Assembly (NCBI GenBank): GCA_051294375.1
Contig: JBJCIZ010000378.1
Location: forward strand, 16,489-66,804
Reading direction: 5' to 3'
Length of the DNA stretch: 50,316 nt
Origin: Paraspadella gotoi
Taxonomy: Eukaryota > Animalia > Chaetognatha
Shown here: piece by piece, positions 7,585 to 50,316 of the stretch
Layout: each line of letters begins with the position of its first letter
How positions within the stretch are numbered: position 1 is the first letter of the stretch
The notes under the pieces: model-generated
Told to the model about the DNA's origin: nothing
Database searches by the model: none
What the model saw: the letters and a program-made list of their open reading frames with translations, nothing else
Translations under genes and position numbers: made by a program

Positions 7585-7835
7585 AATAAGTTAAGGTTAA
7601 AAATAAGTTAGGGGTAAGTTAGGGTTAAGGGTAAGTTTAGGTTAAGGGTAAGTTTAGGTTAGGGTAAGTTTGGGTTAAAGATAAGTTAGGGTAAGGGTAA
7701 GTTATGGTTGAGGGTAAGTTAGGGTTAAGGGTAATTAGGGTTTCAGGGTAAGTTTTAGGTTATGGGTAAGTTTAGGTTAGGGGTAAGTTTGGGTTAAGGG
7801 TAAGTTTTGGTTAAGGGTAAAATTTAGGGGTAAAT
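7585..7835 (+). repeat. Telomere-like ~17-18-bp minisatellite (GGTAAGTTAGGGTTAAG)n
   Basis: Degenerate units containing TTAGGG/TTAAGGG/TTTAGG. Confidence 0.85.
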
Positions 7836-7867
7836 TAAAGTTAAATTTAAAATTAAATTTCGGCTTA

Positions 7868-23487: not shown

Positions 23488-23857
23488 CTAGGATTCATTT
23501 CATTTCATTCCATTCATTACCAAGGATGAGTGAGGAAGGGCTATCAGGACCCTTTCATGTCAGAAACCACATTAAAAGAATGAACTTATATTTGTTGTGA
23601 AAACCAAGAGAAAAATTAAAGCCTACCCAAAGAATATTTAATGGAAAATATCAATTGCTACCCCTATAAGTGCGCATTACCGGAACAAAATTACCATAGG
23701 ATGTGACACCACTTCTCTCTGAACATAACAACAAGTCATATATCCACGCCGATGGGTGGAATGAGAGAAATAGGTGAGCATGAATCACATGATTACTCCA
23801 AGTACTAAAACATCTCTCTCTATTTAAGCCGAAATTTAATTTTAAATTTAACTTTAA

Positions 23858-24110
23858 TTTACCCCTAATTTACCCTTAACCCAAACTTACCCTTAACCCA
23901 AACTTACCCCTAACCTAAACTTACCCATAACCTAAACTTACCCTGAACCCTAACTTACCCTTAACCCTAACTTACCCTCAACCATAACTTACCCTTAACC
24001 CTAACTTATCTTTAACCCAAACTTACCCCTAACCTAAACTTACCCTTAACCTAAACTTACCCTTAACCCTAACTTACCCCTAACTTATTTTTAACCTTAA
24101 CTTATTTTTC
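23858..24110 (-). repeat. Telomere-like minisatellite (CTTACCCTTAACCCTAA)n
   Basis: Reverse complement of 7585-7835. Confidence 0.85.
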
Positions 24111-25749: not shown

Positions 25750-25895
25750 ACTTGATGCTAAGGATCAAGCGTCAAAGCTCAGCAGTCAGCACCAAAATGA
25801 CGCACGAATGGCCAGTCACATATCTCCTAAATTCCAGTTCGGAAAATGATGTCAACATTGACCCTAAGACTGAAGTTTTAAATATAAATATGGAG
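25750..25895 (+). CDS. Candidate internal exon of an unidentified host gene or pseudogene
   Basis: Bounded by TTTACTTTAG| and GAG|GTACGT; open frame LMLRIKRQSSAVSTKMTHEWPVTYLLNSSSENDVNIDPKTEVLNINME; other exon-like islands lie nearby. Confidence 0.35.
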
Positions 25896-25936
25896 GTACG
25901 TATTTGTAGTAATAATAGTAACATTAATGGACATTT

Positions 25937-26353
25937 GGCGACTCGAGTTGACCTTGGTCATCAAGATCACCTCTGTCACAAAGAATTAAGTAGTTGATTT
26001 AATTTAATTAATTTTATATTAACTCCTTAAAAAGTCAATAACAAAGCAAAAAAAGGTTTACGTTTCAACACTGAATTATAAATATTCAAAACAATAATAA
26101 ATTGACAATATACTTGAAAAAGATTCAATGGGGTTTAAATGTAGTTTATAATAATAATTCTGACATCGAATAAAAGAGAGAGATAAAAAATAGTTTTCTG
26201 TTTTTGGCTTGAGATTGGAATGATCTTTTTTCACAATATAAAAGAGAGAAGGCAGACGACGACGACGACGGTGACTGAGGCCTCACTGTAGTTCGGTGAA
26301 AGAATTCTTTGTGACTGAGGTTATCTTGATGACCGAGGTCAACTCGAGTTGCC
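25937..26353. mobile_element. MITE with ~51-bp TIRs (second copy of 5346-5761)
   Basis: Inverted repeats at 25937-25988 and 26304-26353. Confidence 0.8.
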
Positions 26354-28342
26354 AGGGACTTTAGAATTCCTCTATCTGAAGGATGATTTTAAATGTAAGA
26401 CACACAAGTTTATTTTTTATGCTGCTGTTTGTATTTTAATTAGCCTATGCACCGTCAATTTTTAATATAACTATCATTTGAAATTTAAAAATTATAAAGG
26501 TCACCTCTGTTACTCACCACTAAGATGTTCGCACGTCAAACCGCTTGATGCAAATCTGACTCAGCTGTGGAAGGCAGGTATTTCTGTTGCTTCCGAATTA
26601 TGCAAATCAGTTATTTGTAATATATAATAGCATTGTTAATATGAAAAGAAATAAATAATATAAAAATATATAAGTATGAGTAAGTATAAATATTTAAGTT
26701 TCCTTTCTTTTTCTCCAGATTTTGTTTTTGTCTGCATTACGAAGAACGATGGCGTCTCAAGCAAATTTTTTTATAGTTGAAAAATTATTTTGTTAATTTT
26801 ATGTATTGATTTATATGAAATAAAATATTGTTATTCCAAATTATTAGATATTAATAGATATTTACCCCTAATTTGACTATATGTCAGTATCCTTAGGAGA
26901 CAGTAAGTAATCTCATACCCAAAAGTGAGCAAGCTTAATCAGTTGTTTGTTTTTTTGAATTACGTTTCTTGCTTTTGCTATAATAATATTTGGTTCCATG
27001 CATTCTAAAAGCTTTAAAAAAATAAAAAGTTGTCATACTTTATTGTAGGGTTTCTCCAGTTGAAAATACAAAGTAAGCATATCAATTTATTTTCAGAGCA
27101 CTGATAAACAGGTTGCACATTTAAACATACAAGGTTTTAACGAGCTGTATTTAGTATATCACGGATTATTATTCTGATGGTTTTACTAATTTTCCATTTC
27201 ACTTTTTAAGCGGTTCTTTTCTAAACAATTCGACTGGTTTATGGCTTCATATTTACAGCTTTATATTTTTGACGATCCTGTGGATAAGACACTAAGCTGG
27301 CAGAAGACTGTTCGTATCTTCTTTGCACCCTCAGCAGCAATGGAACGAGTCCTAGGCTTCCAACCAGGCTTTAGGGTTATCCAGGCCCCAAAGGCGATTT
27401 AGGGCTGTCCTCACGCTTCCCGCCCAGTAGGTACCATTAGGGATTGATCCCAGTACCTAATAGTCATGTGCTGATGGTATTACTTAATCATCCACCGGGT
27501 CGCGACAGAAGGTGAACGTAATAGCAATGCCCCTCTACTGATAGTAAAAGAAAACAAAATTATGAATATCCATTAATTTATAAAAAAAATTATTTTGTGT
27601 TTATCTATCCTTATAATATCTTAAAATTTCAAGATGGGCTTTTTTTAATTTTGCTGGCAAATTTGAATTCTTCACCAAAAGTTGATATAAGAAAATATAA
27701 ATATATTTTAAAAATTCTTTCATTAATTGATTAAGTTGGTTAAAAATTTACAAAATTATATTTAATACATAAAAAGTTAATTTTCAGCTTAAAATTTTTT
27801 AAAGTTTTTTTGATTATTGACCAACTTAATAAAAGAATTTTTAAATAAGAATTATATTTCTTTTTAGCACTTTTTATGGCAAATCCAAATCTATAAAAAA
27901 AATTTGGAAAAAACATTTGAGATTTTAACATTTATAGGGTTAGTAGTAATACTATATATAAATATAATCTACTGGCTTATCTACTGGCCCCTTCTGGCGG
28001 CTCCTGAAGCAGCGGACTCAAACACACGCACAAAACTTCTCTTTAGCTGCTTCCATCGTCGTTCCATGCGTCATTCCTTTCGTCGTCGCTCTCACCGTCG
28101 TAACTGCTTCCTCGTCGTTTCTGTTGATCCCGATCCTGTCCGCTCAGTCATCCAGCTAGTCAGATTTCTTTTTCTTGTAAATGTAGCGTAGTTTATGACC
28201 AATGTGTAGTTTAATTATTAAAATTTTGTGTTAGTACTATTTCTAACTTAATCATTATCCCTATCCCCCGATCCAACATTATCCCTAACCGAAACCCTAA
28301 ATTAAACAATTAATTACCAACTGCCGGCTGCAGGTATTTTTT

Positions 28343-28755
28343 ATGAGTGATAGAAAATTTAAAAGCTTTGTGTTGCGGCGCGAAGTGGATGCGTTACGAC
28401 CGGTCGACGGGACTCGCCACGCTGATCATCCCCACAGAATCCCGGACGGCCTCCAAAACTGCCGTTTCGTGCTTGTCTGCCGCGACGCCCTTTGGCGCAG
28501 ATTTATGACGGCCCTTTCAAGATCGTCTCTCGTGGCGCCAAGTCTATTCATCTCGATTTCACAGGCCGCCTAGATGACGTCTCGGTCGACCGTCTCAAAC
28601 CTTTCGTCGACAAAGTAGACGGCGCCCCGACCGTCCCTGCGGCGCCTCCGAGACGCGGCCAGCCGCCTACTCGCCATCTACCCACCTGGTTTGAAGCGAG
28701 AGAGATTCGCTGCTACGTCATAAGGAAAGAGGGATTTGATAACCATGTTCGCTAA
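28343..28755 (+). pseudogene. Gypsy integrase C-terminal (GPY/F) fragment, CsRN1-like (second copy)
   Basis: ORFs 28343-28573 and 28492-28755 carry ...CRFVLVCRDA / YDGPFKIV...VSVDRLKPF. Confidence 0.85.
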
Positions 28756-29204: not shown

Positions 29205-32200
29205 AATTGGAAAAAAACGTTTTCTGTTATTTCTAACGTTTTTATCTTTTGAGAGTGAGAGAAAGCTACGTATAATTAAAAGAGAAGAGAGAGAAGGAGA
29301 CATAAAAATAAAAGAGAGGAAATTTGTTTGATTCGATAAAACGTAAAAATAACATATTTAATAACTGTCCTCACCCAATTTTAACAACCTCGATGATCTT
29401 GTTTGCAGAAGTTTTTAACTTTTTTATTTCTTTTTTATTTGAAAATATCGTTTTCCGGTGTTTTCTACGTTTTATATCTTTTTACATTTGAAAAAGCGGT
29501 TTTTTTTGTTTTTAAAGTTTTCATCTCCTTTAACAATTAAGAAGTTGTTTTCTGGGGTTTTCAACGTTTTTATCCTTTTTTACAATAGAAAAGACTTTTT
29601 CGGTGTTTTTAACGTTTTTATCTCTTTTTATATTGAAAAAGTTGTTTGCCGAAGTTTTTAACGTTTTTATTTCTTTTTACATTGAAAATATCATTTGCCG
29701 GTGTTTTCTACGTTTTTATCTCTTTTCATATTGGAAAAGTCGTTTGGTGGTGTTTTAAACGTTTTTATCTCTTTTTACATATGAAATGTCGTCTGCCGGT
29801 GTATTTAACGTTTTTATTTCTTTTTACATTGGAAAAATCGTTTTCTGTTATTTTTAACGTTTTCATATCTTTTTACAAAGGAAAAGTCGTTTTCTGGTAT
29901 TTTTAACATTTTTATCTCTTGAGAGTGAGAGAAATCTACATATAATTAAAAGAGAAAAGAGAGAGAGAAGGAGACATAAAAATAAAAGAGAGGAAATTTG
30001 TTTGTTTTGATAAAACGTAAAAAAAACATATTTAATAACTGTCCTCACCCAATTTAAAAACCTTGATGATGTGAAGCTGTATGTCGTATTGAACCACGAA
30101 CTTTCAGGGTCGTTCTCACTTTCTTAGTGGCTATCGCCACTCCGGTTTTTAATAAATAGATATTCCATTCCCTTCTATAACTATTTTAGCCTTTACATTG
30201 AAAATATTGTTTGCCGGTGTTTTCTACGTGTTTATCTTTTTTTACATTAAAAAAATCGTTTTTCCTTGTTTTTAATGTTTCATCTCTTTTTACAAAGAAA
30301 AAATCGTTTTTCTATGTTTTTAACGTTTTCAGCTCTTTTTACATAGGAAAAAAAAAGGAGAAGTCGTTTTTCAGTGTTTTTAACGTTTTTAGCTTTTTTT
30401 ACATAGGAAAAGAAAAAGGAAAAGTCATTTTTTGGTGTTTTTAACGTTTTCATCTCTTTTTACAAAAGAAAAGTCGTTTGTTGATGTTTTTAACGTTTTT
30501 AGCTATTTTTACATAGGAATAGTCGTTTGACGGTTTTTTCAGCGGTTTTATTTCTGTTTTTATTGGAAAAGTCGTTTGCCAAAGTTTTTAAAGTTTTTAA
30601 TTCTTTTTACATTGGAAAAGTGCTTTTTCGGTGTTTTTAACGTTTTCATTTTTTTTACTAGGAAAAAGTCGTTTTCGGTGTTTTTAACGTTTTTATCTCA
30701 TTCTACAAAAGAAAAGTCGTTTTATGGTGTTTTTAACGTTGTTATCTCTTTATACAATCAAAAAGTTGTTTGCCGGTGTATTAACTATTTGTATATTGAA
30801 AAAGTTGTTTGCAGAAGTTTTTAACGTTTTTATTTCTTTTTTCTTTGAAAATTTCGTTTTCCGGTATTTTCTACGTTTTTATCTCTTTTTACATTGGAAA
30901 AAGCGTTTTTCTTCGTTCTTAAAGTTTTTATCTCTTTTTATATTGAAGAAGTTGTTTTCTGGTGTTTTCAACGTTTTTATCATTTTTTACAATGGAAAAG
31001 ACGTTTTTCGCTGTTTTTAACGTTTTTTAGCTCTTTTTACATAGGAATACCGTTTGCCGGTGTATTTAATGTTTTTATCTCTTTTTACATTAAAAAAGTT
31101 GTTTGTCGGTGTTTTTAACTTTTTATCTCTTTTTATATTGCAAAAAATGTTTGTCGAAGTTTTTAACGTTTTTATTTCTTTTTACATTGAAAATATCGTT
31201 TGCCGGTGTTTTCTACGTTTTTATCTCTTTTTACATCGGAAAAAGCGTTTTTCTTTGTTTTTAAAGTTTTTATCTCTTTGGAAAAGAAGTTTGCTAGTGT
31301 TTTTAACGTTTTTATCTCTTTTTATATGGTAAAGGTCGTCTGCCGGTGTATTTAACGTTTTCATCTCTTGAAAAAGTTGTTTGTCTCTTTTTACATTGGA
31401 AAAAGCGTTTTTCTTTGTTTCTAAAGTTTTTATCTCTTTTTATATTGGAAATGTCGTTTATCGGTGTTTTTAACGTTTTTATCTCTTGAGAGTTAGATAA
31501 AGCTACATATAATTAAAAGAGAAATGAGAGAGAGAAAGAGACATAAAAATAAAAGAGAAGAAATTTGTTTGTTTTGATAAAACGTAAAAAAAACATATTT
31601 AATATCTGTCCTCACCCAATTTTAACAACCTCGATGATGTGAAGCTGTATGTCGTAATGAACCACAAACTTTCAGGGTCGCTGTCACTTTCTTAGTGGCT
31701 ATCGCCACTGCGGTTTTTAATAAATAGATATTCCATTCCCTTTTATAATTATTGTAGCCTGTACATTGAAAATATTGTTTGCCGGTGTTTTCTACGTGTT
31801 TATCTTTTTTTATATTGAAAAAAACGTTTTTCTTTGTTTTTAAAGTTTTCATCTCTTTTTACAAAGGAATAGTCGTTTTTCGGTGTTTTTAACGTTTTTA
31901 GCTCTTTTTACATAGAAAAAGAAAACGGAGAAGTCGTTTTTCGGTGTTTTTAACGTTTTTAGCTCTTTTTACATAGGAAAAGGAAAAGGAAAAGTCATTT
32001 TTCGGTGTTTTTAACGTTTTATCTCTTTTTACAAAAGAAAAGTCGTTTTTTGATGTTTTTAACGTTTTTAGCTTTTTTTACATAGGAATAGTTGTTTGAC
32101 GGGTTTTTCAACGGTTTCATTTTTTTTTATTGGAAAAGTCCTTTGCCATAGTTTTTAACGTTTTTAACTTTTTTTACATTGGAAAAGTGCTTTTTAGGTT

Positions 32201-33608
32201 TTTTTAACGTTTTCATTTTTTTTACTAGGAAAAAGTCGTATTCCGGTGTTTTTAACGTTTTTATCTCATTCTACAAAAGAAAAGTCGTTTACTGGTATTT
32301 TTAACGTTTTTATCTCTTCATACAGTCAAAAAGTTGTTTGCCGGTGTTTTTAACGTTTTTATTTCTTTTTTCTTTGAAAATATCATTTTCCGTTGTTTTC
32401 TACGTTTTTATCTCTTTTTACACTGGAAAAAGCGTTTTTCTTTGTTTTTAAAGTTTTATCTTTTTTTACATTGAAGAAGTTGTTTTCTGATGTTTTCAAC
32501 GTTTTTATTCTTTTTTACAATGAAAAAGACGTTTTTCGGTGTTTTTAACGTTTTTATCTTTTTTGACATTGGAAAAGTCGTTTTCCGGTGTTTTTAACGT
32601 TTTTAGCTCTTTTTACATAGGAAAAGTCGTTTGCCGGTGTATTTAACGTTTTTATCTTTTTTTACATTGGAAAAGTTGTTTGTTGGTGTTTTTTATCTCT
32701 TTTTACATTGGGAAAATCGTTTGCCGGTTTTTTTAAAGTTTTTTTTCTTTTTATATTGGAAAAGAAGTTTGCTAGTGTTTTTAAAGTTTTTATTTTACAT
32801 TGAAAAAGTCCTTTGTCGATGTTTTTAACCTTTTTATCTCTTTTTATATATAAACATTTTCACTTATTTAATATGATATATTTTAAAAATTTTTTTGGAA
32901 AAATCATTAACGCCACATATTTAACTAGGAAATAATACGTTTTGGCGTACTTTTTACGCCACCAGCGCCAACAAACATGTAAAAAAAAAAGAAATCAAAT
33001 CGGAATCCAATACTACTATGTATTTTTAATCAAAAAAAAGCGTTTTCCAAAATTTTAGTTGAATATCCTTGATAGCAGTAAGGAGGCAGAAACGTTACTC
33101 CAAATTGACGTAAATCAGTTGGCGTAAATCAAATATTTAAAAGTCAAACTTGGAATTAACGATTAAAGTACACTTCGATTGGCTTAATATAAGGTTTAAA
33201 ACCAATGAAGAAAATCAGTATTTTTAAAAATTTTGTGCAATACCCTACCTTTGTCGATGTTTTTAACCTTTTATCTCTTTTTATATTGAAAAAGTTGTTT
33301 GCCGAAGTTTTTAACGTTTTTATTTCATTTTACATTGAAAATATCGTTTGCCGGTGTTTTCTATGTTTTTATCTCTTTTTACATTGGAAAAAGCATTTTT
33401 CTTTGTTTCTAAAGTTTTTATCTCTTTTTATATTGGAAAAGTCGTTTGTCGGTGTTTTTAATGCATTTATTTCTTTTTACATTGAAAAAATCGTTTTCTG
33501 TTATTTTTAACGTTTTCATATCTTTTTACAAAGGAAAAGTCGTTTTCTGCTGTTTTTAACGTTTTTATCTCTTGAGAGTGAGAGAAAGCTACTTATAATT
33601 AAAAGAGT
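29205..33608 (-). repeat. ~50-bp satellite, T-rich orientation, with ~1.56-kb higher-order duplication
   Basis: Monomer TACATTGGAAAAGTCGTTTGCCGGTGTTTTTAACGTTTTTATCTCTTTT; a unique ~130-bp spacer recurs at ~30060 and ~31625. Confidence 0.95.
32850..33247 (-). mobile_element. ~400-bp insertion in satellite, one end hAT-like
   Basis: Non-satellite block whose minus strand starts TAGGGTATTGCAC, with repeated TGGCGT/ACGCCA motifs; flanked by a 39-40-bp direct duplication. Confidence 0.5.
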
Positions 33609-36062
33609 TTTGGTTGTAAAAAGAGATAAAAACGTTAAAAACGCCAGAAAACGACTTTTCTTTTGTAGAATGAGATAAAAACACTGGCAAACAACTTTTT
33701 CAATGTATAAAAAGATAAACACGTTAAAAACACCGGCGTACGACTTTTTCTATCTAAAAAGAGATAAAAAAGTTAAAAACACCGACAATCGGCTTTTTTA
33801 ATTTAAAAAAGTTAAAAACACAGACAAACGACTTTTCCTTTGTAAAAAAAAAAAAAGTTAAAAACACCGGCAGACGACTTTTCCAATGTAAAAAAAGTTA
33901 AACACGTTGAAAACACCGGCCAACGACTTTTTTAATAAAAAAAGAAATAAAAACGCTAAAAACTTTGGCAAACTACTTTTACAATGTAACAAAAGATAAA
34001 AACTTTTAAAAAACCAGCAAACGACTATTCCTATATAAAAAAGCTAAAAACGTTAAAAACACCGGAAAACGATTTTTCCTTTGTAAAAATATATAAAAAC
34101 GTTAAAAATAACAGAAAACGATTTTTTAATGTAAAAAGGAATAAAAACGTTAAAAAAATCGGAAAACGACTTTTCCAATATAAAATAAGATAAAAACGTT
34201 GAAAACATCGGCAAACGACTTTTTCATTATAAAAAGAAATAAAAACGCTAAAAACTATAGCAAACAGCTTTTTCTATATAAAAAAGGATGAAAAGGTTAA
34301 AAACACTGGAAAACGATTTTTCCTATGTAAAAAGAGATAAAAGCGTTAAAAACACCGATAAACGACTTTTCCAATGTAAAAAGAAATAAAAACGTAGAAA
34401 ATACCGGCAAATGATATTTTCAATGTAAAAAAAATAAAAACGTTAAAAACTTCGGCAAACAACTTTTTCAATAAAAAAAAAGATAAAATGGTTAAAAACA
34501 ACGGCAAACTACTTTTTGCTTGTATAAAGAGATAAAAACGTTAAAAACACCAGAAAACGACTTTTCTTTTGTAGAATGAGATAATAACGTTAAAAACACT
34601 GGAAAACGACTTTTCCTTAATAAAAAAAATGTAAACGTTAAAAACACTGGAAAACGACTTTTCTAATGCAAAAAGAGATAAAAACGTTAAAAACACAGAA
34701 AAAGCACTTTTCCAATGTAAAATGAAATAAAAACGTTAAAAACTTTGGCAAACGACTTTTCCAATAAAGAAAGAAATAAAACCGTTGAAAACCCCGTCAA
34801 ACGACTATTCCTATGAAAAAATTCCAAAAATGTTAAAAACACCGGAAAACGACTTTTCCTTTGTAAAAAGATATGAAAACGTTAAAAATAACAGAAAACG
34901 ATTTTTCCAATGTAAAAACTAAAAAGAGATAAAAACGTTAAGGCCAGGGATCACTCAACCTAAAATTGTAGAAATCTCAATTTAATGTATATTAATCATT
35001 TTTTCGCGTCCCGTAAGAGGTTTTCTATTAAAAATAATCGAAAACTTTTAAAAATCTACCTAAAATGTTCATAAAAATTTAAGCAAAATTTTTTCTTCGG
35101 TAAAACTAGATTTTTAAGAGAAAATATTTTTTTAAATGTAAGGTAAATTTTTACAACCAAATTTTTAACTTAAAACTGATTCTTTACAGTAAGCTCAATT
35201 TCTACTTCTTATATTTAATTCTTCTTTTGGGGCAAGTACGTACTTGGAGTTGTATCACTAATAAGTCTAATAAACTACTCTACACATTTTCCAGACGGGT
35301 TTTTATGCTTTTATGAGTTAAAAAACTTATCCAATTTATTTCAATTTGACTTTTTACTTTATGTAAATGTTTATATCATAAAATAGTTGCCCTATTTTCT
35401 AGGGAATCTCTGAAAAAAAAATCAAACCTGGATTAAGAAAATTAAAAACAGTAAGCCGTTTTTTTAAGACATTGGCGTTGAAAAAAACTCCATCATCACA
35501 TCCCGTGTTTGTGTATGTTGTGGTGAATCTTGCAAGAGTAATGAGTACAGAATTTAACTTTCTTGACGAAGAGAAGTTAAAAACGAAGAGTTGCAGCTCA
35601 AACCGTTGGACTCTTCTTGAAGAAAAAAATATCTTGGCAAGAAAGGAAAGGTGGGAAGATTCTATGAGCGCGTTTTTGAAAAAACTTTTTTCGTTTCAAA
35701 GATATCAAGGAATTAATCCCAAAAATTGACTAAAATAATAAAATTTTCTATGAAGGAAGGCAAATTTTGAAAGTATCTTTTCATAGAATTGGAGTCCGTG
35801 ACCTAAAGATAATTCATTCCAAATTTCATGAGAAACCGCCTTACCGTTTGGGCTGCAACTCTTCAAATAGGTTTCTTTTATTTTATATAGTAAAAAAAAA
35901 TCGAAAAAACGATAACGCCTTTGAAAAAATAGTAAAGTGAATACATTTTCGGAATCATCAGGAGCTCTCCTTTCGAAATCCGAGCTTGGTTTTAGCCTAA
36001 TTATAATTTAAATTGAGTGATCCCGGACCTTAAAAACACAGGAAAACGACTTTTCCAATGTA
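33609..36062 (+). repeat. ~50-bp satellite, A-rich orientation (interrupted at 34942-36029)
   Basis: Same monomer in the opposite orientation; resumes for ~30 bp after the insertion. Confidence 0.9.
34942..36029. mobile_element. Non-autonomous Kolobok-like DNA transposon (1088 bp)
   Basis: TTAA at 34938-34941 and 36030-36033; TIRs GGCCAGGGATCACTCAA / GGTCCGGGATCACTCAA (reverse complement). Removing it restores the satellite unit AAAAACGTTAAAAACAC. Confidence 0.85.
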
Positions 36063-37376
36063 AATATTAGAATTAATTTTTCTTTTTGATATAATAAGAG
36101 AACCAAACTTCCGTCACTTGATGTCGTCAGGTTACTTGTAAATATGCGTTTGTGGATTCCAAATATGTTTTTAAAATTGACCTACGTAGACGCGCATAGA
36201 CGCGATATGCCTTAAAAGCAAGTTGTTTGGTTTGGTTCCACTTAAATTTTTAGCTTCGACCGTGTCAATTGGTAATAAAAAAAATGATTTTCTTTGATAT
36301 CTTTTGAACTAAAAATGATAGAACGATGAGACTGGTATCATATTAAAGCCATAATTATGGGGCATCTTTTCCATATAATTTTTAAAAAATATTTCAAAGG
36401 ATATTTTTGAAATCTTGATTGGAATCTTAGTCACTTGGCCACCTTTAAAAAAAAAAAATATAGATTCTGAAAGAGAAAAGATTAAATTATGTTTCTGATA
36501 TAAACAGAAATTTTCTATACCTCAAATGTTTATATAATTACTAAGGATAATGATTATCATTTTGTTGAAAACAAAAAAATTTAAAAAATTCATGTAGGAA
36601 CCTTAAAAAACATATGATTTAAATATGATAATTTAGGAGTTCAAACTTTGTTCCCCCTGATTTAAAAACTACTGACATAGGGCTAAAAGACTGTATTATC
36701 AGATTTTTAAATTTTAAGATTTAGTTCTGTCTCTGAGGCCTGGCAGAAAAAAATTATCAAAATTTTGTTTTATGTCATAATGCTATCATAAAATAATTTT
36801 AATGCATCATGTGAGGTATCATATGAAAGCTAACGATGTCTGCTACATGACAGAACGTCGAAAAAAATTATATTAATAAAAATAAAAAATCACCAGACTA
36901 CCCTACTAATGGTTTTTAATATGTGCCTTACACTTTAATCTGCTGAATAAAATCAAAATAAATAAAATCAGTCATATATGTAGACTCTTAGACCGACTTA
37001 TACATATTGGTATAAACCGCCCCCGACCAGGATTCGATCCTGTAATCTAAGTTCCTAGTAGCCTGGATTTACAGCTTGGTGCGAACCCGGCAACTGGAAT
37101 TTCGAATTCAAAAATTCCTATTTAAAGCTTTAATAGAAATCGATACCTTTTGTTTTTCCCAGATTTAAACTCCTTATCTTAAATTAAAAATGACATTTTT
37201 TAAAGATTTTTGGTAGTATCTCAATAAATATTTATCGTAAATAGTTGGCAATAGGCTCAAAATTAAGGTCACATCCTATAGTTTATGTATATATATATAT
37301 ATATCACATCATTATGGTAAATTATTTAAGGAAAGAGTTTAAATTGTGATTCAGCAACGAATTTATTTAATAATAA

Positions 37377-37417
37377 ACGGACATGTTTCGGTTCGGTTTA
37401 CGAACCTTCATCAGCGC
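37377..37417 (-). ncRNA. Minimal type I hammerhead ribozyme
   Basis: Minus strand: GCG CTGATGA A GGTTCG TAAAC CGAACC GAAA CATG TC^ CGT; core boxes, 6-bp stem II, palindromic CATG stem III. Confidence 0.9.
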
Positions 37418-37423
37418 AGTTAA

Positions 37424-39236: not shown

Positions 39237-39673
39237 CTATTGTCTGCGCAAAGGTCTCCGCCCATCTCGTTGAGTGGAGATAGGAGAATCATTGTGCAGG
39301 CGTGGTGGAGACGGGGTCTCCACCACGCTTTTGAGAAGCGAATCATAGCTTGGAGGGAGGTTGAATCGTCCTCCATCACGATTCAAAGAGGGCTCGAGGG
39401 CTTTGGTGTAAATTGCCTCTCTAATGCCTCTTGAGAACCAGTTCGGGTCATGAGACAGCACGAGACAGTCTGTTTCTCTAAATAAGTGGACAGGTAATGG
39501 CCTCAGGCATCGCGGTAGGGCTTTGTGTGCTGTTGGAAACGGTCTATAAGAGATTTGCCTGTCTCGCCTATGTATGCTGCTGTACAGGCTTGGTTGCCCG
39601 CCTCTGCACAGGCCACCAAATAGACAGCTCCTGATGTTTTCGGTCTGGGGATTTTATCTTTTGGTTTCATCAA
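39237..39673 (-). pseudogene. Penelope-type GIY-YIG endonuclease domain, disrupted
   Basis: KPKDK...SGAVYLVAC...CTAAYIGETGKSLIDRFQQH, then LSHDPNWFSRGIREAIY...PSLNRDGGRFNLPPSYDSLL in a second frame. Confidence 0.92.
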
Positions 39674-39743
39674 TTGTTCTCTCTTTCTCTCTCTCCCTTG
39701 TTTATGCACCAAATAATTAAATATTTCACAACTGTCTTTAACT

Positions 39744-39784
39744 GCGCTGATGAAGGTTCGTAAACCGAACCGAAACAAGTCCGT
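39744..39784 (+). ncRNA. Minimal type I hammerhead ribozyme (inverted pLTR copy)
   Basis: GCG CTGATGA A GGTTCG TAAAC CGAACC GAAA CAAG TC^ CGT; predicted cleavage after 39781. Confidence 0.85.
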
Positions 39785-40678
39785 TTATTATTAAATAAAC
39801 TCGTTGCTGAATCACAATTTAAACTTTTTCCTTATGTCCCAAAGGCAACGAAAAAGAAAGGAAATTATAACAGGGTAAATTATTTAAAAATTAAAATTAA
39901 TATTTTTTTCAAATTTTTGGGGGAAGATGTACCTATATTGAAGCTTGAAGAAAAAATTTATTTTTAAATTAATTGAAAGAAGACTGTCTATAAAACTCGT
40001 TGTGATCCTCAATTTTTTAGTTTAAAGTCTTTTTAACCAAAAGTCGGAGAAAGTTGGGAGTGGTCTTAAATTAAAGCTCTAGGTTTACTAATATCGTTTG
40101 ACATAGAGAGGTTTGAATATTTTGCAAAATTAGTACAAAAGTTATCAAATTTTCTCAAAAATTAACTTACCAACTTCAACTGCAATTAAAAAAAAACTGA
40201 GTTTGGAATATATTTTCGACTTAGCCTAAGCTCTTGTCCTGACAGCAACCTTTCAGGTTTTCATCATTCCAGAGATGGTATATTTCCATATTTTTTTTCC
40301 TCCTATAAAAAGAAACATGCTTAGATATAAAAAATTTCAAAGTTGCTTGTTTTACTATATTAGACTAAGTTAGATAGCTATTTTTTAAATGAATATAAAA
40401 GTTGAGTATATTTTACATAAGTATTTGATTTAGCTATTATTTATTTCATAAATATTTATTTCGTAAATATTTATTTCATATAATGTTATGGGGAGAGGAA
40501 AGTTAATGCTGTCTTCTGGAAATAGAGGGAGCATCTATTTCAGGAAATGTATGAATACAAGGTGGAAACTAGTGAACTAACCGGTAAACTGAGAAAAAAA
40601 GGAAAGAGAAGAGAAGATAAAAAAGAAAAGAGGCAAAGATAAGAATTGAATCGCGAAGGTAGAAAAGTAGAATTAGAA

Positions 40679-40900: not shown

Positions 40901-41010
40901 AAAAGTGACGTAGAGATCTCGCTCTCTCGCTCTTCTGCTTTGTTCCTCTTTCCATCCCACGTCGAACTATTTCTGGCTCGGAGGGCGGAGAACAACAACT
41001 CGGCTGAATT

Positions 41011-41047
<37 letters not shown>

Positions 41048-41124
41048 AGCTCCGACTGTCACTCTCTCTCTCAAACGATCTCAGTAATAGAATTTTTACA
41101 AGCAGAAGTAGAGGTGACGTAATG

Positions 41125-41666
41125 CTAATAAATTATATTTACTAATTTTGTTCAATTATAAGAATGATTATAAAAGAAATAAATAATAAATAAGTATGAA
41201 AATATTACTTGTAAGTCGATTATCTCGTGATTGAATCATCTTAAAATGATAAAAATGGGTTCATCTGAAAGGTCTTGAAAAATGCATCAGGATGAATACA
41301 TAATGAAATATATTTGGTATAAAATTAAATCTAAAAGGTTATCTAAAGCAATAATAACAAATAACGTTAAAATTTATTTTATTATTTTTTCTCATTTGTC
41401 CTTACTTAGTTTAATTACAAAAAAGCCTTAAAGTTTAAACTATTTAATTTTACTTTTTACAAACAGGAGTAAATATGACTTAATTCTAATAAATTATATT
41501 AAATAATTTTATACTATTATAATAAATGATTATAAAAAAAATAAATAATAAAGAAATATGAAAATATTACTTGTAAGTCGATTATCTTGTGAATGAATTA
41601 TCTTAAAATGATGGAAATGGGTTCATCTGAAAGGTCTTGAAAAATGCATTAGGATAAATACATAAT
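41125..41666. repeat. Direct duplication (~180 bp conserved, ~362-bp spacing)
   Basis: CTAATAAATTATATT...GGGTTCATCTGAAAGGTCTTGAAAAATGCAT...ATACATAAT at ~41125-41304 and ~41487-41666. Confidence 0.9.
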
Positions 41667-41677
41667 TTCACTTATTT

Positions 41678-41912
41678 GCTTGAAACTTGAAACTTGAAAC
41701 TTGACTAAGCCACAGACGTTAGCGCTAAGGGTTTGGCGCCGATTTGCAGCTTCCGAGAGACCGTCAAGACTCGTTGGCAACTCCGTGGCATTGCCGTAAC
41801 AACGCACTAGAAACGCCGTGGCAGAGCCGTTCCTCTTTATGCGATATGTCTCCCTGGGAAGGAGACAAAGAAAGGGTTACTGGAAAGGTAACTTAGCGAA
41901 GGTAGGCCCTAT
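41678..41912 (-). mobile_element. Short retroposon (SINE or LINE 3' end) with (CAAGTTT)n tail
   Basis: GC-rich ~210-bp island ending on the minus strand in TCAAGTTTCAAGTTTCAAGTTTCAAG. Confidence 0.45.
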
Positions 41913-42390
41913 GTTTGTATAATGACGTTCTGGTTTGTATATATACCTTTTAAACAAGCTAACAAGTTATGAAATTGGTACTATCAATATAAAAATCATC
42001 CATTTAATTAATAAATAAGTGTTGGTAACGTGACTTGTGGCCCTCAAAAAGATGACGGATAGAGAGCTGGATTATGCATAATCTGTCTAATTAGTTTTTT
42101 GAAGTTACCTGAAATAATTGTAGATTTGCCCCAGTTGTAAAATGTAATTTAAACCATGATAAAATATTGCTTCTTACTCCCTTGAGATCTAAAAATGGAA
42201 TGCACTTAATTCTCTGCCTCCTTCCCGTCTCTCTTCCTTTGTTTATCTAATTCCCTAAATGTTTACAAAATAGGAGCCGAGCTCTGAGAATCTACAGAAT
42301 ATTAAACTTTGAAACTAAGAAAATTTAGAGAGACAAAAATTGAATGAAAGTTAATAACTAAATTGGAGGCCAATTAAAATATTACTAACA

Positions 42391-42400
42391 TCTCCCCCCC
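42391..42400 (-). promoter_or_regulatory. Polypurine tract (plus-strand primer)
   Basis: Minus strand reads GGGGGGGAGA immediately followed by TGTTAGTAAT. Confidence 0.75.
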
Positions 42401-42873
42401 AAAACAAATTTTGTTAAAAGGCAGGTAAATAAACAAGCTAACAATTAGTACAAATGATTACATGTAAAGCACTAATACAAATAATCTTAATAGTTATGAC
42501 AGCATTACAATTGATCACATTTAGCTAAATATAGGAAAAGTAAATAAAGGTTAAAAATAAATCGACGCTGCATTTAATAAGTAAATCGTAGCAAAATATA
42601 AAAGTGTTTTGAGAAGAAGGCAAAACTGTTGGCCAAACAGTTCGGTAAAGGTTACAATAAATCAATTTTATTTTGGATCCAATTACAAAATATAAATAAA
42701 CATTTCACAAAACATTCTCACGCAATATCTCGATCGTTCATCGTTCGGATCATTCACACTCGATCTATTTTCGATATCTTATCAAAATTCTCGCTTCGAT
42801 TTAATTCGGTCGGATTGGTTCGTTCAATCGTCGAAACTAAACTCATCTTGCTCTTCCTACTCACGAGTCCGAA

Positions 42874-44031
42874 ATGGTAAGTGTGACGGATAAGTTCAGT
42901 ATCTTCTTCTAAAGTGCGCAAATTATATTTCAGAACTTGTTTTCAATAAAATTTATCGTAACATTAAATTAATCTTTACACCTTAAATAAAAAAATGTTC
43001 AGAATGATTTCCGTAATCATTATCTTGCTTTTTCTCGGCCTTTCGGAGACGAGCTCAGACGTGCTGAGCCCAGAGGAAGGGCTCGCAGTGCTGTGCCGGC
43101 AGCCTCAGTTCGCTGAGGCCGTCGAGTGCCGCAATGCGGTTCTTCCGACGGGCGACGCCGTCTTTTTAACGGCGGCGGTCGGGACAGCGACAACTCCGAA
43201 TTTAATTTCGAGTTCGACGCCGTCTTTGGTCGTTTGCTCGTACGCAATGACGGCTCTAGAGAAGGTGCTAGTTTCGATCGGCGGCTGCATAGGAACATAT
43301 ATCATAATCGTTTTTGTTTTGCGTTTCGGCGCAAAGATGGGTTGGGTCGATGCCCTTACCCTGGCGGCCAGTAGAGGGAGGGGGCCAGGTGCCAGGTGTG
43401 TGTGGCATGTATACCAAAATCCGGAAGTGCCCGATACACTAGAGATGCAGATGTCTAAGGTTAATTATACTTCGATAGAGCCAGAGCGGGTTTTTAGTAA
43501 CATTTTATATATCGATTTGGTAAGAATTTTCATAACCCTAATTCAGAATACTTTTCGTTTAGTCTGCTGCGCCTTTTTACACGCTTCTTGCCAAACTCGG
43601 CTGGAAATACGGGAAATCATGTTCGATTCCCGTCACCACTCAGGGTGTGTTCGGCATCTGTCAGCCCGACCACTCATCACTCTATTTGGTCATTCTTGTC
43701 ACGCTATCAATCGTCTGTCTCGCCTTACTCATTGGCATCGTCGTTCTGCAATGTCGTTGTTGTGTCGGTAAGTGACAGGTGCAGATTAATTCAGTGCTGA
43801 CATGCAAAAATTTGATATATTATTGAAATGAAATTTTGCAAATAAATCGTGCAGACAGATAGTAAAAAGGGTGCAAACAAATTTGTGATTTCAGGATCGT
43901 CAAGTTCAAAGTATCGTTTATCAGTTCCTTCTCTGCTCAGTCATCGCAACAAGAGTAAGAAACGCCCGGTCGCGCCTCAGCGCAAATCGAAAAACCAAAT
44001 CGTCGACATCGAAGATCACTCCGAAGTCTAG
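42874..44031 (+). CDS. Predicted spliced small single-pass membrane protein (114 aa), FAST/p10-like; exons 42874-42876, 43563-43767, 43895-44031
   Basis: ATG|GTAAGT donor; TTTTCGTTTAG| phase-0 acceptor; G|GTAAGT...ATTTCAG|GA in-frame junction. Product: MSAAPFYTLLAKLGWKYGKSCSIPVTTQGVFGICQPDHSSLYLVILVTLSIVCLALLIGIVVLQCRCCVGSSSSKYRLSVPSLLSHRNKSKKRPVAPQRKSKNQIVDIEDHSEV. The first exon is uncertain (other phase-0 donors at 43460 and 43520). Confidence 0.6.
42995..43519 (+). CDS. Signal-peptide type I membrane protein of unknown function (5' part of ORF 42995-43771)
   Basis: A-rich context before ATG; hydrophobic leader MISVIIILLFLGLSETSS; CRQPQFAEAVEC (Cx10C); S/T-rich stalk; TM VLVSIGGCIGTYIIIVFVL followed by R..K; GC-rich coding-like composition. 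True C-terminus unclear. Confidence 0.6.
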
Positions 44032-44134
44032 GTGAGAAGACACAATTAGTAAATATTTCGATGTAATTACAATCCCATTAATAATTATATTAATCCTTTC
44101 AGTTTCGTTGAGTTGAGATTTAAGCAAAGTTCGA

Positions 44135-44379
44135 AAATAAGTTCTTCAACGATTTTTATTTTTGTACGGACATGTTTCGACTCTTTTTCGAGCCTTCATC
44201 AGCGTTAATAAATATTTACAAATTTGTGCAAAAGAAGGGAGAGAGAGAGAGAGAGAGAGAGAGAAAGAAAGAGAGAGGGCAAAAAGTTTCCAACACAGAG
44301 ATAGTGGTTTAAAGAATGAGTACAGTTTAAGTTGAGGACAGATCAGTTGTGAAAAAAAGTGAAATGGTCAATTGGTGAA

Positions 44380-44410
<31 letters not shown>

Positions 44411-44589
44411 AACAGAGAGAGACAAAATAATACATTGTGCAATGTACAACCAGGAATAAGTTTAAACTAATAGTGAATTTAACAATTAATCTAATAATAA
44501 ATCGATAGTAATGAAAGGAAAGAAAGTTTTTAAATGTGAAATGATACATTTTTTGTGAGGGATAGATAAGTGACTGTTAAAGTGAAAAA
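44135..44589 (-). mobile_element. Solo/partial Penelope-like pLTR, diverged relative of 38490-38900
   Basis: Shares GTGCA.AAGAAGGG(GA)nGGGCAAA..TTTCCAACACAGAG and AAAGTGAAATGGT..(GA)n..ATAATACATT with 38514-38710; carries a hammerhead. Confidence 0.75.
44166..44205 (-). ncRNA. Minimal type I hammerhead ribozyme (variant)
   Basis: Minus strand: ACG CTGATGA A GGCTC GAAAAA GAGTC GAAA CATG TC^ CGT. Confidence 0.9.
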
Positions 44590-44955
44590 TTAAGAATCAT
44601 TTTGAGCTCTATCATAATTGATGATTTGTTTAGCTCGTTCCTTCGATACATGAGAACGAATGATTTGACAAATGGGTAGTAATATCTTAGTATTATCAAT
44701 AATGTTTTGTACTTTATACATCCCGGTTCCCACTCTCTCTAAAACTTCATAAGCGGCGACAATTTGTTTCTGTAATTTTTTATTCATGTTGGTCGCAAAA
44801 GACATTCGTTTTCGAAATACTATGTCTCCTTTACTTAACGCTTTGGTTTTATCTCGAGGATTTAAATGTTGCTGATAAGATAATAAATTCTTATATGCCG
44901 CAAAATGAATTTCACGGTGCATTTCTAATAACATATTAAATGCTAATGCATTGAT
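44590..44955 (-). pseudogene. C-terminus of a Gypsy-type integrase (SH3-like domain), 5'-truncated
   Basis: LSKGDIVFRKRM...KKLQ...YEVLERVGTGMYKVQN fits the GDxV...KL...YxV...YxV integrase C-terminal pattern; the GPY motif itself is not conserved. Confidence 0.65.
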
Positions 44956-45097
44956 CTGCCACTTCCGCCCATAACTCAAAGTACGCCGTTTCATGCTCTT
45001 CATCGATCATATCTCGCTCGTGCCAGCGCTGCGGAAGAAGGCAGAACCTCGCACCATGAGGCAGACCTACCAGTTGGCGGGCATCGCCGAATTTAAG
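44954..45097 (+). pseudogene. Gypsy RNase H fragment, CsRN1-like
   Basis: ICHFRP*LKVRRFMLFIDHISLVPALRKKAEPRTMRQTYQLAGIAEF resembles the HFR..LEGR.F...TDH..L......P...RQ...L..I.EF RNase H end. Confidence 0.75.
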
Positions 45098-45197
45098 GAG
45101 CCGCTGCAGATTGAAAAGGTTGTTCCAAGGGTTGGATTGTCCCTGGGTTGTACCTCTTCTAGTGTGCTGACAACAAGGAAGTATTAGAGATGGTACT

Positions 45198-47121
45198 GTG
45201 ATGTCGCATGCCATTCCTAAGACTGAGCGGAATCAAAGCCGCCCTTGCAAGGCCACTGAGGGACAATCTTCCCACTCAAGCAGGCAGTCAAGGAGTGTGA
45301 GGAATTGGGGATCAGCCAGCTTAGTAACTGAAAAAAGATTTAATGAGCAAGATTTTACCCTGTCCTCTAAGTCTTATGAACAGAAGAAGATAGAGGTTGA
45401 GGACAGAAAGAGAGAGTATGAAAAGGAAAAGCTGGAATTAGAAGAAAGGCTCAGAGAATTGAATGAAAAGAAAAGAGCCAGAAAGAAGGAAGAAAGGAGA
45501 AGGAAAGCCTCCAAGGAAAGAAGAAAGGATTTAGATAAGAAAAGAACTAAGGCTGTTCTTATGGCTAGATCACAAATGACAACTCAGGAGTTGGTTGAAT
45601 ATTTGCAAAAAAGACGCTCCTCTGAGAAAAAAGATGTCATTTGTGATAATGATAAATGTATGACCTCTTCCAGCTCTACTGAAGCTCAGGAGTTGAAGTC
45701 CTTTGGAAATCCAGAGGCAGTTTTCTCCTTCAGTGACGGCACTTCCATCAATGCTGAAGATAAAGAACAGAAAACTGCTCAACCAAATTTTGAATTAGGA
45801 TCTGTTAATACCGCCTCTTCCAGTAAACCTGATGCAGAGGATTGGAATCCAGATCAAAGTATTGAAGAAAGTGTGATCTCCTCCAGTGAAGACCCCAAGG
45901 CTACCACTGTCGAGATGGATCCTAAAATTAAGATGACAGATAATGACTGTCAGCATTTGGCCAGTCTGACTAACCCTTTGGAAAATGTTCATGCCTTGGC
46001 GGATTATCCAGCCATGCTGAATGTCCATAGAGATGAGTCTGACTTGAAAATCTCCACTCACCCTGGTGGTGTCGACTGTGACCCATTCTGACACAAATTT
46101 ACCAACTGAGGTGACCCTGGAGAGAGAGAAGCTGACTGATCAGTAAAATCCGGACTCCAGGCCAGAATTTGGTCACCCACCTATTGAAAAAGAGGGTCAA
46201 GTACCCAACAAAAAGATTGACTGGATCTTGGCAGCGGATCTGCAGCATAACTCTTTTGGAGAAGCTGCTCCAGCTCATGAGGTTGGCCAGGGTGGTGATT
46301 TTCCCACTCTTCCCATCTACTGAGTTGGAAACTGCTGATCGATTAGGTTTTTCCAGGCAAAATTGCCTGAATGAGAATCTAGAGTTGAAGACAGAATCAG
46401 GACAAGGTTGTAGCAGACATGCCTGCTAGAAATGATGCCCAGACTCTTAAGAACTTAGAAAATGAAAATGATATTGGTTTAGAAGTTCACCTTCTGAAGC
46501 AGAAGGCTGGAGCCCTAATAAATCTGATATGGAAAATACTGAAGATGATTGTCAGCAGCAGGCTGCTCCAATGAGCCTATCTCAGGAGGCTGAACCTACA
46601 GGTCGATGCCAATCTGTAGTGAACCTCCAAAGAGGTGGCAAGTCTGGATTGACAGCCTTTATGGCACACTTTGGGGCTGGACTGTGACCGGGAAGAAAAG
46701 CCTTTCAGGACCAGTTCTGTCTGCTTTGATTACCCTGAATCTATATACTACTGTAAAGAAGGTTGAATTGTCAAAAGAAAAACATGATTTAACCCCGTCA
46801 GTAGATTTGCAGCAAACCTCTTTCAAAGGTGCTGCTCCGCCTGTTCCAGAGCTGGAATCTGCTGATGGAGGGGGCTCCGCCTTAAAGCATGACCCAGAGA
46901 GAAAGCAAAGGTCATGTGGGCGACGTAATGCCAAAAGACGAAGTAAGAAAAGAAATGGTACAATGAATGACAGACTGACTGACCTTGTTGACAGTCAGAC
47001 AAGTGGTAAACGTCAGAACATGTCAAAGGAACCTGCTGGTGAAAGATTGAAACGTGAAAGGAGGACCTCCGCTGGTCAGCAGAAGGAGGGGGGAGAGCCT
47101 TCAACAAGGGTTCCCCTTTAG
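45198..47121 (+). pseudogene. Disrupted low-complexity coding region (charged coiled coil, acidic/Ser-rich, basic tail); unknown product
   Basis: ORFs 45198-46091 (297 aa) and 46606-47121 with coding-like composition between them; AATAAA at 47211-47216. Confidence 0.5.
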
Positions 47122-48631
47122 TCTGTTTGGCTATTTTATATTGTATTGTTTTCTTGGTGTAAATACTTTACCTAGCTATTATTTGTACATGTTGTGCTTT
47201 TTAAATTGTTAATAAAAACAAAATTGGAATGCGTGATATATCAGTCATCTCCTCGTCATTTGAAAGAAAAAAGACGGAAAAATGTAAAAATGACGTAACT
47301 CGTTAAGCGGATTATTCCTCTCTTCAATTTTACTAGTTTTTTTCCTCTTTCGTTTTTCATTTTTTCTATCTCCATCTCTCTCTTTTACAACTTTACCCCA
47401 TCTCCCACTCATCATTAATCTACCTTTTTTCGCTCTTACTTTTTTCTCAACCTCTCTTCCTTCACTTTCTTCACCTCTCAATTACACTTATATATCTTTT
47501 CCTTCACTTCCTCCATCTTCTCTATTCACTCTTCCTCCCTCTTCTCTTCTATTTCCTTTCCCTCTCCTCTCTCATCATTTCCTCTCTCTACTTCCTCTGC
47601 CCCTTTATCTTTCTCCTCCCTTTCCCCCTCACTCCTCTCCCTCTATTTTTTCATCCCTCTCCGTCTCCCGCATTTCGCAATAAACATAATCCGTGTCGCG
47701 ATTGAGACTCGCGAGTCCCATTGACTTAACGACGCCACGAGTCCTTTTTTTTTCAACCAAAAAATAAAGAAGAAAACTTTCTTTGCCCTCCTTTCTTTTT
47801 ATCTTCTTTTTATCTTCCTGTCCTTTTTTAGATAAGTTTTTTCTCCAAACCTTTCGTTTCCTTAACCCTTTTCGTCCTGTTTATATTTTTCTTCGATGTT
47901 TTACTTTTTTCTACAAATAATTTTCCTTCGCCCGACTCCACCCCACACTGCCCGATTTTTCAAAAAGACCTCCAGGTTAACGCAAACAAAAAGAGAGAGA
48001 TTCGACCGTACGACCTCGTTCGCCCTCTCTCTCTTTTACCGGTTTGCTCCCGCCCTTTCTCTCTCATTTAAGTAAGGTAGAGCAGAGATTTCGACATGAA
48101 AACCAGAATGGATTTTATTCTCAGAAATATAATCAAGCGAAGAAACGGAGTGAGAATTAGAGAGACGAATAAATCGATTACAAAAAACGATCAGTATTTA
48201 TACAGGTCAATGCGATCATCGACACGGGTTCATTTTCCGCGATGGCAAGAATGCTCTTCTTCTCATTTGGTCCGTTCCGATGGTGATTCGTCCAATGAGA
48301 GAATCTTCGGCGATTCTATCCGCAGTCGCGGATGCCGATTCCATTTTGGTTTCGATTAGATATGGCTTTCTCATCTTGAAATAGCTTTGAAATTTCATAT
48401 TCCATTTGGATTCAAATATTTTTGGTTTGAATTTCCACTTCAATATTTGGTTATCATTGAAGGCAGGCTCGATCCTATTCTTTTAAGATTTTTTAGTCGG
48501 ATCTGCTTTCAGCAGATCCCGGACTCTATAATTCACTTTGTCGGTCCGTTGTCCGCCCCCTCAATATTGTCGGGCAGTCACTTATATCGATCAGCAGAAC
48601 ATCAAATTATGATAAATTATGCAAAAAAAAC

Positions 48632-49834: not shown

Positions 49835-50316
49835 TGGCAGTGGTTTTAGGAGATAGGCGGACGGAGGAAGGAGCAGGCGTTAAGAGGTCTTTTTGAAAAT
49901 CAGGCAGTGTGTAGGAGATAGGCGGACGGAGGAAGGAGCAGGGCGTTAACCTGGAGGTCTTTTGAAAAATCAGGCAGTGTGTAGGAGATAGGCGGACGGA
50001 GGAAGGAGCAGGGCGTTAACCTGGAGGTCTTTTTGAAAATCAGGCAGTGTGTAGGAGATAGGGCGGACGGAGGAAGGAGCAGGGCGTTAACCTGGAGGTC
50101 TTTTTGAAAAATCGGCAGTGTGTAGGAGATAGGCGGACGGAGGAAGGAGCAGGGCGTTAACCTGGAGGTCTTTTTTGAAAAATGCGGCAGTGTGTAGGAG
50201 ATAGGCGGACGGAGGAAGGAGCAGGGCGTTAACCTGGAGGTCTTTTTGAAAAATCGGGCAGTGTGTAGGAGATAGCGCGGACGGAGGACGACAGGAAGGC
50301 AGGTGCCGGTTAACCG
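49835..50316. repeat. 70-72-bp GC-rich tandem repeat, ~7 copies, running off the window end
   Basis: CAGGCAGTGT at 49901, 49971 and 50041; unit GGCAGTGTGTAGGAGATAGGCGGACGGAGGAAGGAGCAGGGCGTTAACCTGGAGGTCTTTTTGAAAAATCA. Confidence 0.97.

Follow-up and report, generated by a model that had tools for sequence, protein, structure and literature searches.

The question raised by this locus is what an LTR retrotransposon without a visible envelope gene does with a gene for a small membrane protein, placed in the env position and read from the opposite strand. The locus lies in a 50,316-nt stretch of a Paraspadella gotoi contig (JBJCIZ010000378.1), which was analysed at its full length and is here called the window. 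A sequence-only reading had proposed a hidden spliced frame of 114 aa, built like the p10 FAST fusogens of reoviruses. What we regard as solid, at the level of sequence, is that the LTR element holds a putative membrane-protein gene that is antisense, selected and predicted to consist of several exons. That its product is a fusogen is a reasonable lead, suggested by its layout.

The element is recognised from its 3' end. The 3' LTR, 371 bp on the minus strand at 42020..42390, has TG...CA ends and a terminal inverted repeat that matches at 8 of 9 positions, and it is flush with a polypurine tract (PPT) of 10 purines on the same strand (42391..42400); inverted TG...CA ends with a preceding PPT are the features of a Ty3/Gypsy element, and both are present. 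What appears to be left of pol is a C-terminal, SH3-like integrase fragment at 44593..45006 (minus strand), which resembles PF24626 SH3_Tf2-1 at E 4-5e-4, a weak match with 20.7-20.9 bits, below the curated cut-off of 30. No homologue of this integrase end was found by word-based search or among viral and metagenome contigs. Since the PPT and the integrase end are both on the minus strand, this is the sense strand of the element, and the small-protein gene on the plus strand is antisense, just as the sequence-only reading had described. The gene is placed between the integrase-like end and the PPT with the 3' LTR, which is the env position. Its linkage to the PPT and LTR is direct; its linkage to pol we infer, because an insertion, an AG-rich repeat of about 450 bp (44140..44590, limits approximate, no strand assigned), stands between the two, and no listed contig spans it.

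Neither a second LTR copy, that is, a 5' LTR, within the 50,316-nt window nor a PBS, gag or RT of the same element copy among the window ORFs (ORF list and Pfam) was recognised. The earlier placement in an LTR retrotransposon therefore holds for the LTR, the PPT and the integrase-like end, and has to be narrowed in that this copy is a truncated, interrupted Gypsy-type fragment. There is no long sense-strand env ORF between the integrase end and the PPT. The longest frame there, 119 aa at 43108-43464 on the minus strand, overlaps exon A of the gene and was set aside as a shadow of it; two of its three ungapped sites are synonymous as compared to three of three in exon A, a difference that is not decisive. 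Around the element we also observed a 240-bp direct repeat, 85% identical, just beyond the 3' LTR (41093-41332 and 41454-41694), and, on the plus strand, a charged 306-aa ORF without family (45171-46091). The latter follows a plus-strand frame at 44975-45184, which shares some sequence with the integrase fragment at the upstream end of that fragment and which we take to resemble a Gypsy RNase H end; Pfam gave no match for this frame. The inserted repeat shares one end with 39678-39862, part of a fragment (39240-39862) that we presume, from a GIY-YIG-like motif, to be Penelope-like. The end of this fragment recurs inside the LTR element (44094-44256) and, by eye, near 37360-37420, beside the AG-rich repeat.

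The 114-aa frame itself was found as proposed. The ATG at 42874-76, 43563-43767 and 43895-44031 join in frame to 345 nt, or 114 aa and a stop, and the boundaries are all of the GT-AG type, with the acceptor AG at 43561-62, the donor 43767|GTAAGT and the acceptor TTTCAG at 43894. It is also true that the frame opens exactly after the acceptor; this is no separate evidence, as the TAG of the acceptor is itself an in-frame stop. The earlier gene model was incomplete, though, because what it took for an intron of 686 nt holds a further coding-like exon, exon A, at 43003-43459. The simplest reading of the sequence is a predicted four-exon gene with two isoforms, one of 114 aa in which exon A is skipped and one of 265 aa in which it is included.

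All parts of this predicted gene are on the plus strand. Exon 1 (42691..42876; GC 0.40) would be 5' untranslated, with a TATA-like site, and ends in the ATG before a GTAAGT donor, which places a putative plus-strand promoter and start site near the 3' LTR. Intron 1 (42877..43002; 126 nt, GT-AG, GC 0.26) leads to exon A (43003..43459; GC 0.55), with its own ATG at 43004, a signal-peptide-like N-terminus, Cys residues, a TM (KD19 2.54) and a weak phase-0 donor. Intron 2 (43460..43562; GC 0.30) has 103 nt, about 128 in one of the diverged copies described below (contig 5), and is indel-rich between copies. Exon B (43563..43767; GC 0.50) encodes a Cys21-Cys34 loop, a TM and the juxtamembrane Cys in a frame that appears to be under purifying selection, and is followed by intron 3 (43768..43894; 127 nt, GTAAGT...TTTCAG, GC 0.31) and exon C (43895..44031; GC 0.47), with a Ser-rich linker, a basic patch, a C-terminal SEV and the stop. 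The GC content thus changes in blocks, 47-55% in exons A-C as compared to 26-31% in the introns (Fisher P 3e-13 and 8e-8, the former for exon A, 0.55, against introns, 0.29). By these blocks and the synonymous excess reported below, the locus looks like a real gene. At exon C there is a second open frame on the plus strand (43895-44035, 46 codons), also basic at its end, and exon A joined to it directly would give 198 aa. A read-through frame of 267 codons (42968-43771) was dismissed as the one translated over exon B, where 0 of 11 differences are synonymous in it.

To judge whether the frame is kept, diverged relatives in one public run (X1) were used, in which 257 records aligned to 41000-45300, most of them less than 95% alike. 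Of 316 differences, 40 were listed, and they lie outside exon C and the splice sites. In exon B, 8 of the 11 listed differences are synonymous in the 114-aa frame, as compared to 28% expected (P=0.003), with most of the sites coming from one contig and the 11 belonging to the 40 listed rows out of 316. The two other plus frames of exon B have 1 and 0 synonymous differences among the same 11, and the minus frames, which contain 4-6 stops, have 0, 5 and 3. The diverged copies have no indels in exon B; contig 5 carries 25 extra letters, all of them within 43444-43508. Judging by these differences, the exon B frame is under purifying selection between copies. The coding region between pol and the PPT, which is the feature expected of an antisense ORF (aORF), is accordingly kept across copies, in this one run. 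In X1 contigs the region also stays together with the LTR, and one contig aligns from exactly 42020, the LTR end, with 23 other letters before it, that is, with a different flank. The contigs are continuous across both intron 2 and intron 3, and of three listed joints none coincides with a predicted splice junction; the RNA status of X1 is only guessed, and this continuity says nothing on expression.

The cysteines, whose conservation across copies bears on the proposed fusogen, gave a divided result. In loop codons 21-34 there are three listed differences, all synonymous and none of them at Cys21 or Cys34. In the CRCC motif, Cys65 and Cys68 are without a listed difference, while Cys67, one of the two adjacent cysteines, is changed in all four X1 contigs that cover 43758.

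The predicted 114-aa protein has Cys residues at positions 21, 34, 53, 65, 67 and 68, a single hydrophobic peak (KD19 3.18, residues 44-62; TM 41-63 by eye), a K/R cluster at 87-102 and a C-terminal SEV, presumably a class I PDZ consensus; an N-terminal hydrophobic peak is absent. The features named by the sequence-only reading, i.e. the Cys loop, TM, CRCC, basic patch, SEV and lack of a signal peptide, were thereby all recovered in the frame. The frame stands above chance. In the whole window, 179 frames run for 66 codons or more without a stop, and it is one of only 2 that reach a KD19 of 2.8, the other being 34% GC and rich in F, L and I; the synonymous excess in exon B points the same way. 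The loop between Cys21 and Cys34 has 12 residues, 5 of them hydrophobic, and ends 6-9 residues before the TM. A net charge of -1 before the TM and +3 after it favours an N-out orientation. There is 1 K/R in residues 63-72, 3 in 63-82 and 8 in 86-102, so that the cluster starts about 25 residues past the TM. The predicted size of 114 aa and the tail of about 52 aa are valid only with exon A skipped. In the AF2 model of exon B, residues 37-67 form one long helix, predicted with confidence; the N-terminal helix is weak and the loop is disordered. The hydrophobic moment is 0.46-0.54 at residues 9-22, and in the tail values above 0.45 are confined to the basic window at 99.

No homologue of exon B was found by word-based search, by HMMER against 1.84 billion representatives, in the PDB, in Pfam or in viral and metagenome contigs, and none of exon A by word-based search or in viral and metagenome contigs. 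A viral-contig match to exon B (L001, 19 residues, 53%) was rejected as chance; it falls within an 83-aa ORF that is unrelated and has phage-like surroundings. The best Foldseek hit of the exon B model among viral models (BFVD), with an E of 4.6, was rejected too. In the ESM Atlas all neighbours score below 0.9. The two highest scores (0.86 and 0.81) belong to clusters without a name, recorded for the most part from arthropods, and the named neighbours are SMIM3, coronavirus E, PRIMA1, influenza M2, TMEM213, TMIE and stannin. Because these look-alikes are generic single-pass proteins, a TM with juxtamembrane Cys and a basic tail is not specific to fusogens.

Is the protein then a p10? Published descriptions give p10 as a protein of about 95-98 aa with a central TM and an ecto- and an endodomain of about 40 residues each. 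Its cystine loop of 11 residues (Cys9-Cys21) is N-terminal, an MPER of 13 residues comes after it, and next to the TM there is a conserved, palmitoylated di-Cys with a basic motif close by. FAST proteins at large have a polybasic cluster beside the TM, with an amphipathic helix adjoining it, and span the membrane once, N-out and C-in, lacking a signal peptide. The resemblance to p10 of avian and Nelson Bay orthoreovirus is real in outline, with a size of about 100 aa, an ectodomain of about 40 aa, two Cys around a moderately hydrophobic loop, a TM, Cys right after it and basic residues in the tail. The architecture claimed earlier stands to that extent, while its finer points do not hold or are doubtful. 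The loop has 12 residues at 21-34 instead of 11 at 9-21, the 6-9 residues from Cys34 to the TM are too few for the 13-residue MPER of p10 or its 9-residue conserved motif, the basic cluster is distant, about 25 residues past the TM, and the adjacent di-Cys is put in doubt by the X1 contigs, in which Cys67 differs. Pfam includes a p10 model, and no p10 homology was seen in Pfam to E 10, in the PDB, among the 1.84 billion representatives or among BFVD folds, in agreement with the caution of the sequence-only reading that the similarity was architectural and not a measured homology. On account of the loop length and position, the distant basic cluster and the lack of homology, we do not class the 114-aa protein as p10; specific p10 kinship is not supported, and the protein would be a p10 analogue outside the p10 family. 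In PMC12945298, loop length is reported to be critical for ARV p10, and the putative FASTs of pistolviruses have loops of 10-14 residues.

A close parallel is found in insects. The sequence-only reading had mentioned FAST-like proteins in env-less insect Gypsy elements, and these correspond to the sORF2 proteins of Voichek 2025 (10.1101/2025.03.14.642691), from the MDG1 group. As described in that study, its 105 candidates are all in sense orientation and were selected for MGxxxS/T, sORF2 is downstream of pol in 7 of 22 Lepidoptera cases, and the sORF2 of Stalker1/2 is also without MGxxxS/T. The authors state that their screen left out non-myristoylated, palmitoylated types. They also report that the 412 sORF2 gave no cell fusion in heterologous assays and that long-read transcripts of five Drosophila elements were unspliced. 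The likeness to our case is a small single-TM protein with a basic tail in an LTR element without visible env, and the sORF2 ectodomain is given there as 10-50 aa. On the other hand, the gene described here is antisense and predicted to be spliced, and its protein starts with MS, with Ser as residue 2 and no MGxxxS/T; a Cys loop and juxtamembrane Cys are found in place of the myristoylation motif.

The antisense position has precedents of another kind; one of them, HIV-1 ASP, differs from the present gene in overlapping env. An antisense ORF between pol and the 3' LTR is found in maize Grande (gene23), RIRE2, Retand (TRP28) and Botrytis Boty, as it is here; gene23 is reported to have its own promoter (PMC7264820), and PMC11963269 also treats such ORFs. 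These are plant or fungal genes, with nuclear or DNA-binding products where studied, and the parts of the sources at hand mention no intron or TM product for them. Among retroviruses, HTLV-1 HBZ, which is spliced and a nuclear bZIP protein, and HIV-1 ASP, which is transmembrane, are both antisense and driven from the 3' LTR side, according to PMC10186651. They differ from the present gene in belonging to vertebrate retroviruses with env, and neither is described there as a fusogen. Further sources behind these comparisons are PMC3961370, PMC4402516, PMC8220671, PMC12477816 and PMC13524379. In the literature covered, no LTR element of an animal was described with an antisense gene that has introns and encodes a membrane protein; Repbase, subscription journals and the Voichek supplements (fig. 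S10 and the list of 105) lay outside this scope and may bear on novelty.

We tentatively put first that this antisense gene in the env position, conserved between copies and predicted to be spliced, gives a 114-aa single-pass protein that would act in the manner of FAST or sORF2 and help pass capsids to the neighbouring cell. The reason is that the element has no visible env and has retained, at the place of env, a small membrane protein whose Cys-flanked loop is constrained. We suppose that the gene is driven by a promoter on the plus strand beside the 3' LTR, that its introns are kept since they lie antisense to the genomic RNA undergoing reverse transcription, and that this placement would allow control separate from gag-pol. 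When exon A is skipped, the exon-1 ATG would open exon B. From the charges around the TM, -1 and +3, the protein would be N-out, and the Cys21-Cys34 disulfide loop together with an N-terminal amphipathic helix might engage the facing membrane, with the juxtamembrane Cys acylated and the basic, PDZ-type tail placing the protein at cell contacts. A bolder version is possible, if doubtful, namely that env has been replaced by an intron-containing antisense gene with its own promoter, from which alternative splicing yields both a non-myristoylated, cystine-loop fusogen of p10 style and a longer signal-peptide form, and that FAST-like spread was invented independently.

The FAST-like role has two close rivals. 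It is rather doubtful, and still to be weighed seriously, that the 114-aa protein is made and is not a fusogen at all, and instead serves as a viroporin-like or host-modulating accessory, through ion leak, as a budding or trafficking aid, by superinfection block or by scaffold binding of its tail. Coronavirus E and influenza M2 (0.78) are among the Atlas look-alikes, next to small cellular single-pass proteins, although scores below 0.9 are leads only. The features specific to p10 are lacking. The antisense retroviral proteins are accessory or regulatory, HBZ being spliced and nuclear and HIV ASP transmembrane (PMC10186651), and FAST proteins have themselves been proposed to stem from non-fusogenic, viroporin-like precursors (PMC7412057). 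Such an accessory would, however, have no need of a constrained Cys-flanked loop, 5 of 12 residues hydrophobic, in an ectodomain of about 40 residues, which is a FAST hallmark, nor does it explain why the gene sits in the env position of an element that has no visible env.

The second rival is more doubtful. It holds that exon A is always included, so that the product is a 265-aa precursor with a signal peptide, a Cys domain and two TMs, or a type I protein from exon A only, and that the 114-aa type III protein is not the primary product. As we see it, the 114-aa protein is a predicted exon-skipped form in competition with the 265-aa form. That inclusion is the default is suggested by the three similar introns, since those flanking exon A (126 and 103-128 nt) resemble intron 3 (127 nt), and the GC contrast of exon A with the introns (P=3e-13) points the same way. 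With the weak donor at 43459, which is in phase 0, the selected frame of exon B continues that of exon A, for a total of 265 aa; in contig 5, a donor of consensus type appears to lie equally far, 15 bases, from the anchor at 43444 that both sequences share. All three of the ungapped differences listed for exon A are synonymous. Three further rows (43452-55), from a gapped part of the alignment and non-synonymous as they stand there, were left out of this count, which with them would be 3 of 6.

There are also precedents for the layout of the longer form. Rotifer Vesta4 ORF3 has 220-230 aa and two TM regions with Cys between (PMC5408684), and PMCV p33 undergoes cleavage, its C-terminal half being FAST-like (PMC12945298). 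Going by the descriptions and in layout only, Vesta4 and Vesta6c ORF3 and pistolvirus p33, p34 and p42, with 200-300 aa and either two hydrophobic regions with Cys between or a signal sequence and a FAST-like C-terminal half, fit the 265-aa model. The RXXR site, coiled coil and chemokine-like domain of these proteins were not seen here (the RXXR site by eye), and the available descriptions mention neither introns nor an antisense orientation for them. Against constant inclusion of exon A speaks that in this copy the exon-1 ATG lies, in the spliced form, 4 bases ahead of the ATG of exon A and out of frame with exon A, giving a 38-codon product, while it is in frame with exon B, as expected for the skip isoform. 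With a signal peptide and two TMs, the basic and Cys-rich tail would probably end up extracellular, contrary to the charge rule, and one of the X1 contigs differs from the window sequence across 42944-43037, the signal-peptide region. For exon A, the model made by AF2 was too poor to be informative (pLDDT 42). An AKxGW word common to exons A and B was rejected as not significant (E 0.088).

That the locus is a captured host gene, a decaying passive remnant without present role or a set of chance frames is unlikely: ordinary spliceosomal introns that would survive only in antisense may fit a captured gene, this copy is truncated and interrupted, and the selection signal, 11 of 40 listed rows out of 316, is mostly from one contig, but the synonymous excess and the lack of indels between diverged copies, the movement of the region with the LTR in X1 contigs, one with a different LTR flank, and the lack of a cellular homologue among 1.84 billion representatives all speak against it.

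Earlier screens for envelope-independent spread of retrotransposons, to go by Voichek 2025, considered unspliced myristoylated ORFs in arthropods only and found sense-strand genes only. Such screens would miss the class represented here, membrane-protein genes in the env position that are under selection, antisense and split by introns. If the FAST-like role is true, this kind of spread would be served by a gene that is invisible to six-frame ORF screens. The gene also makes it possible to test in a concrete case whether fusogens of the FAST-like, cystine-loop type have arisen anew outside reoviruses. Should it not cause fusion, a membrane protein would still join the antisense accessory genes, of which the reviewed ones are nuclear or of unassigned function.

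The rest of the window is rich in repeats. Three frames with a coiled coil and Cys/His knuckles, at 130-1383 (minus strand), 21972-22352 and 23119-23484 (both plus strand), we take to resemble BEL/Pao gag; one of them has an N gap, and similar pieces occur twice, in opposite orientation. The segments at about 2988-6704 and 24994-28696 form a large inverted duplication, 96-100% identical and about 18-25 kb apart, which is either a real fold-back or an assembly artefact and which includes a Gypsy integrase-like C-terminal fragment at 2947-3258 (minus strand) and 28426-28752 (plus strand). Satellite arrays with a 49-nt unit occur in both orientations at 29400-35000, 1350-2490 and 13450-19250, and 17-nt tandem repeats at 7508-7837 and 23799-24166, the first of these with TTAGGG-like words. 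Near the end of the window, at 49851-50252, there is a 70-72-nt tandem repeat, 40 bases of which recur inverted at 47944-47983.
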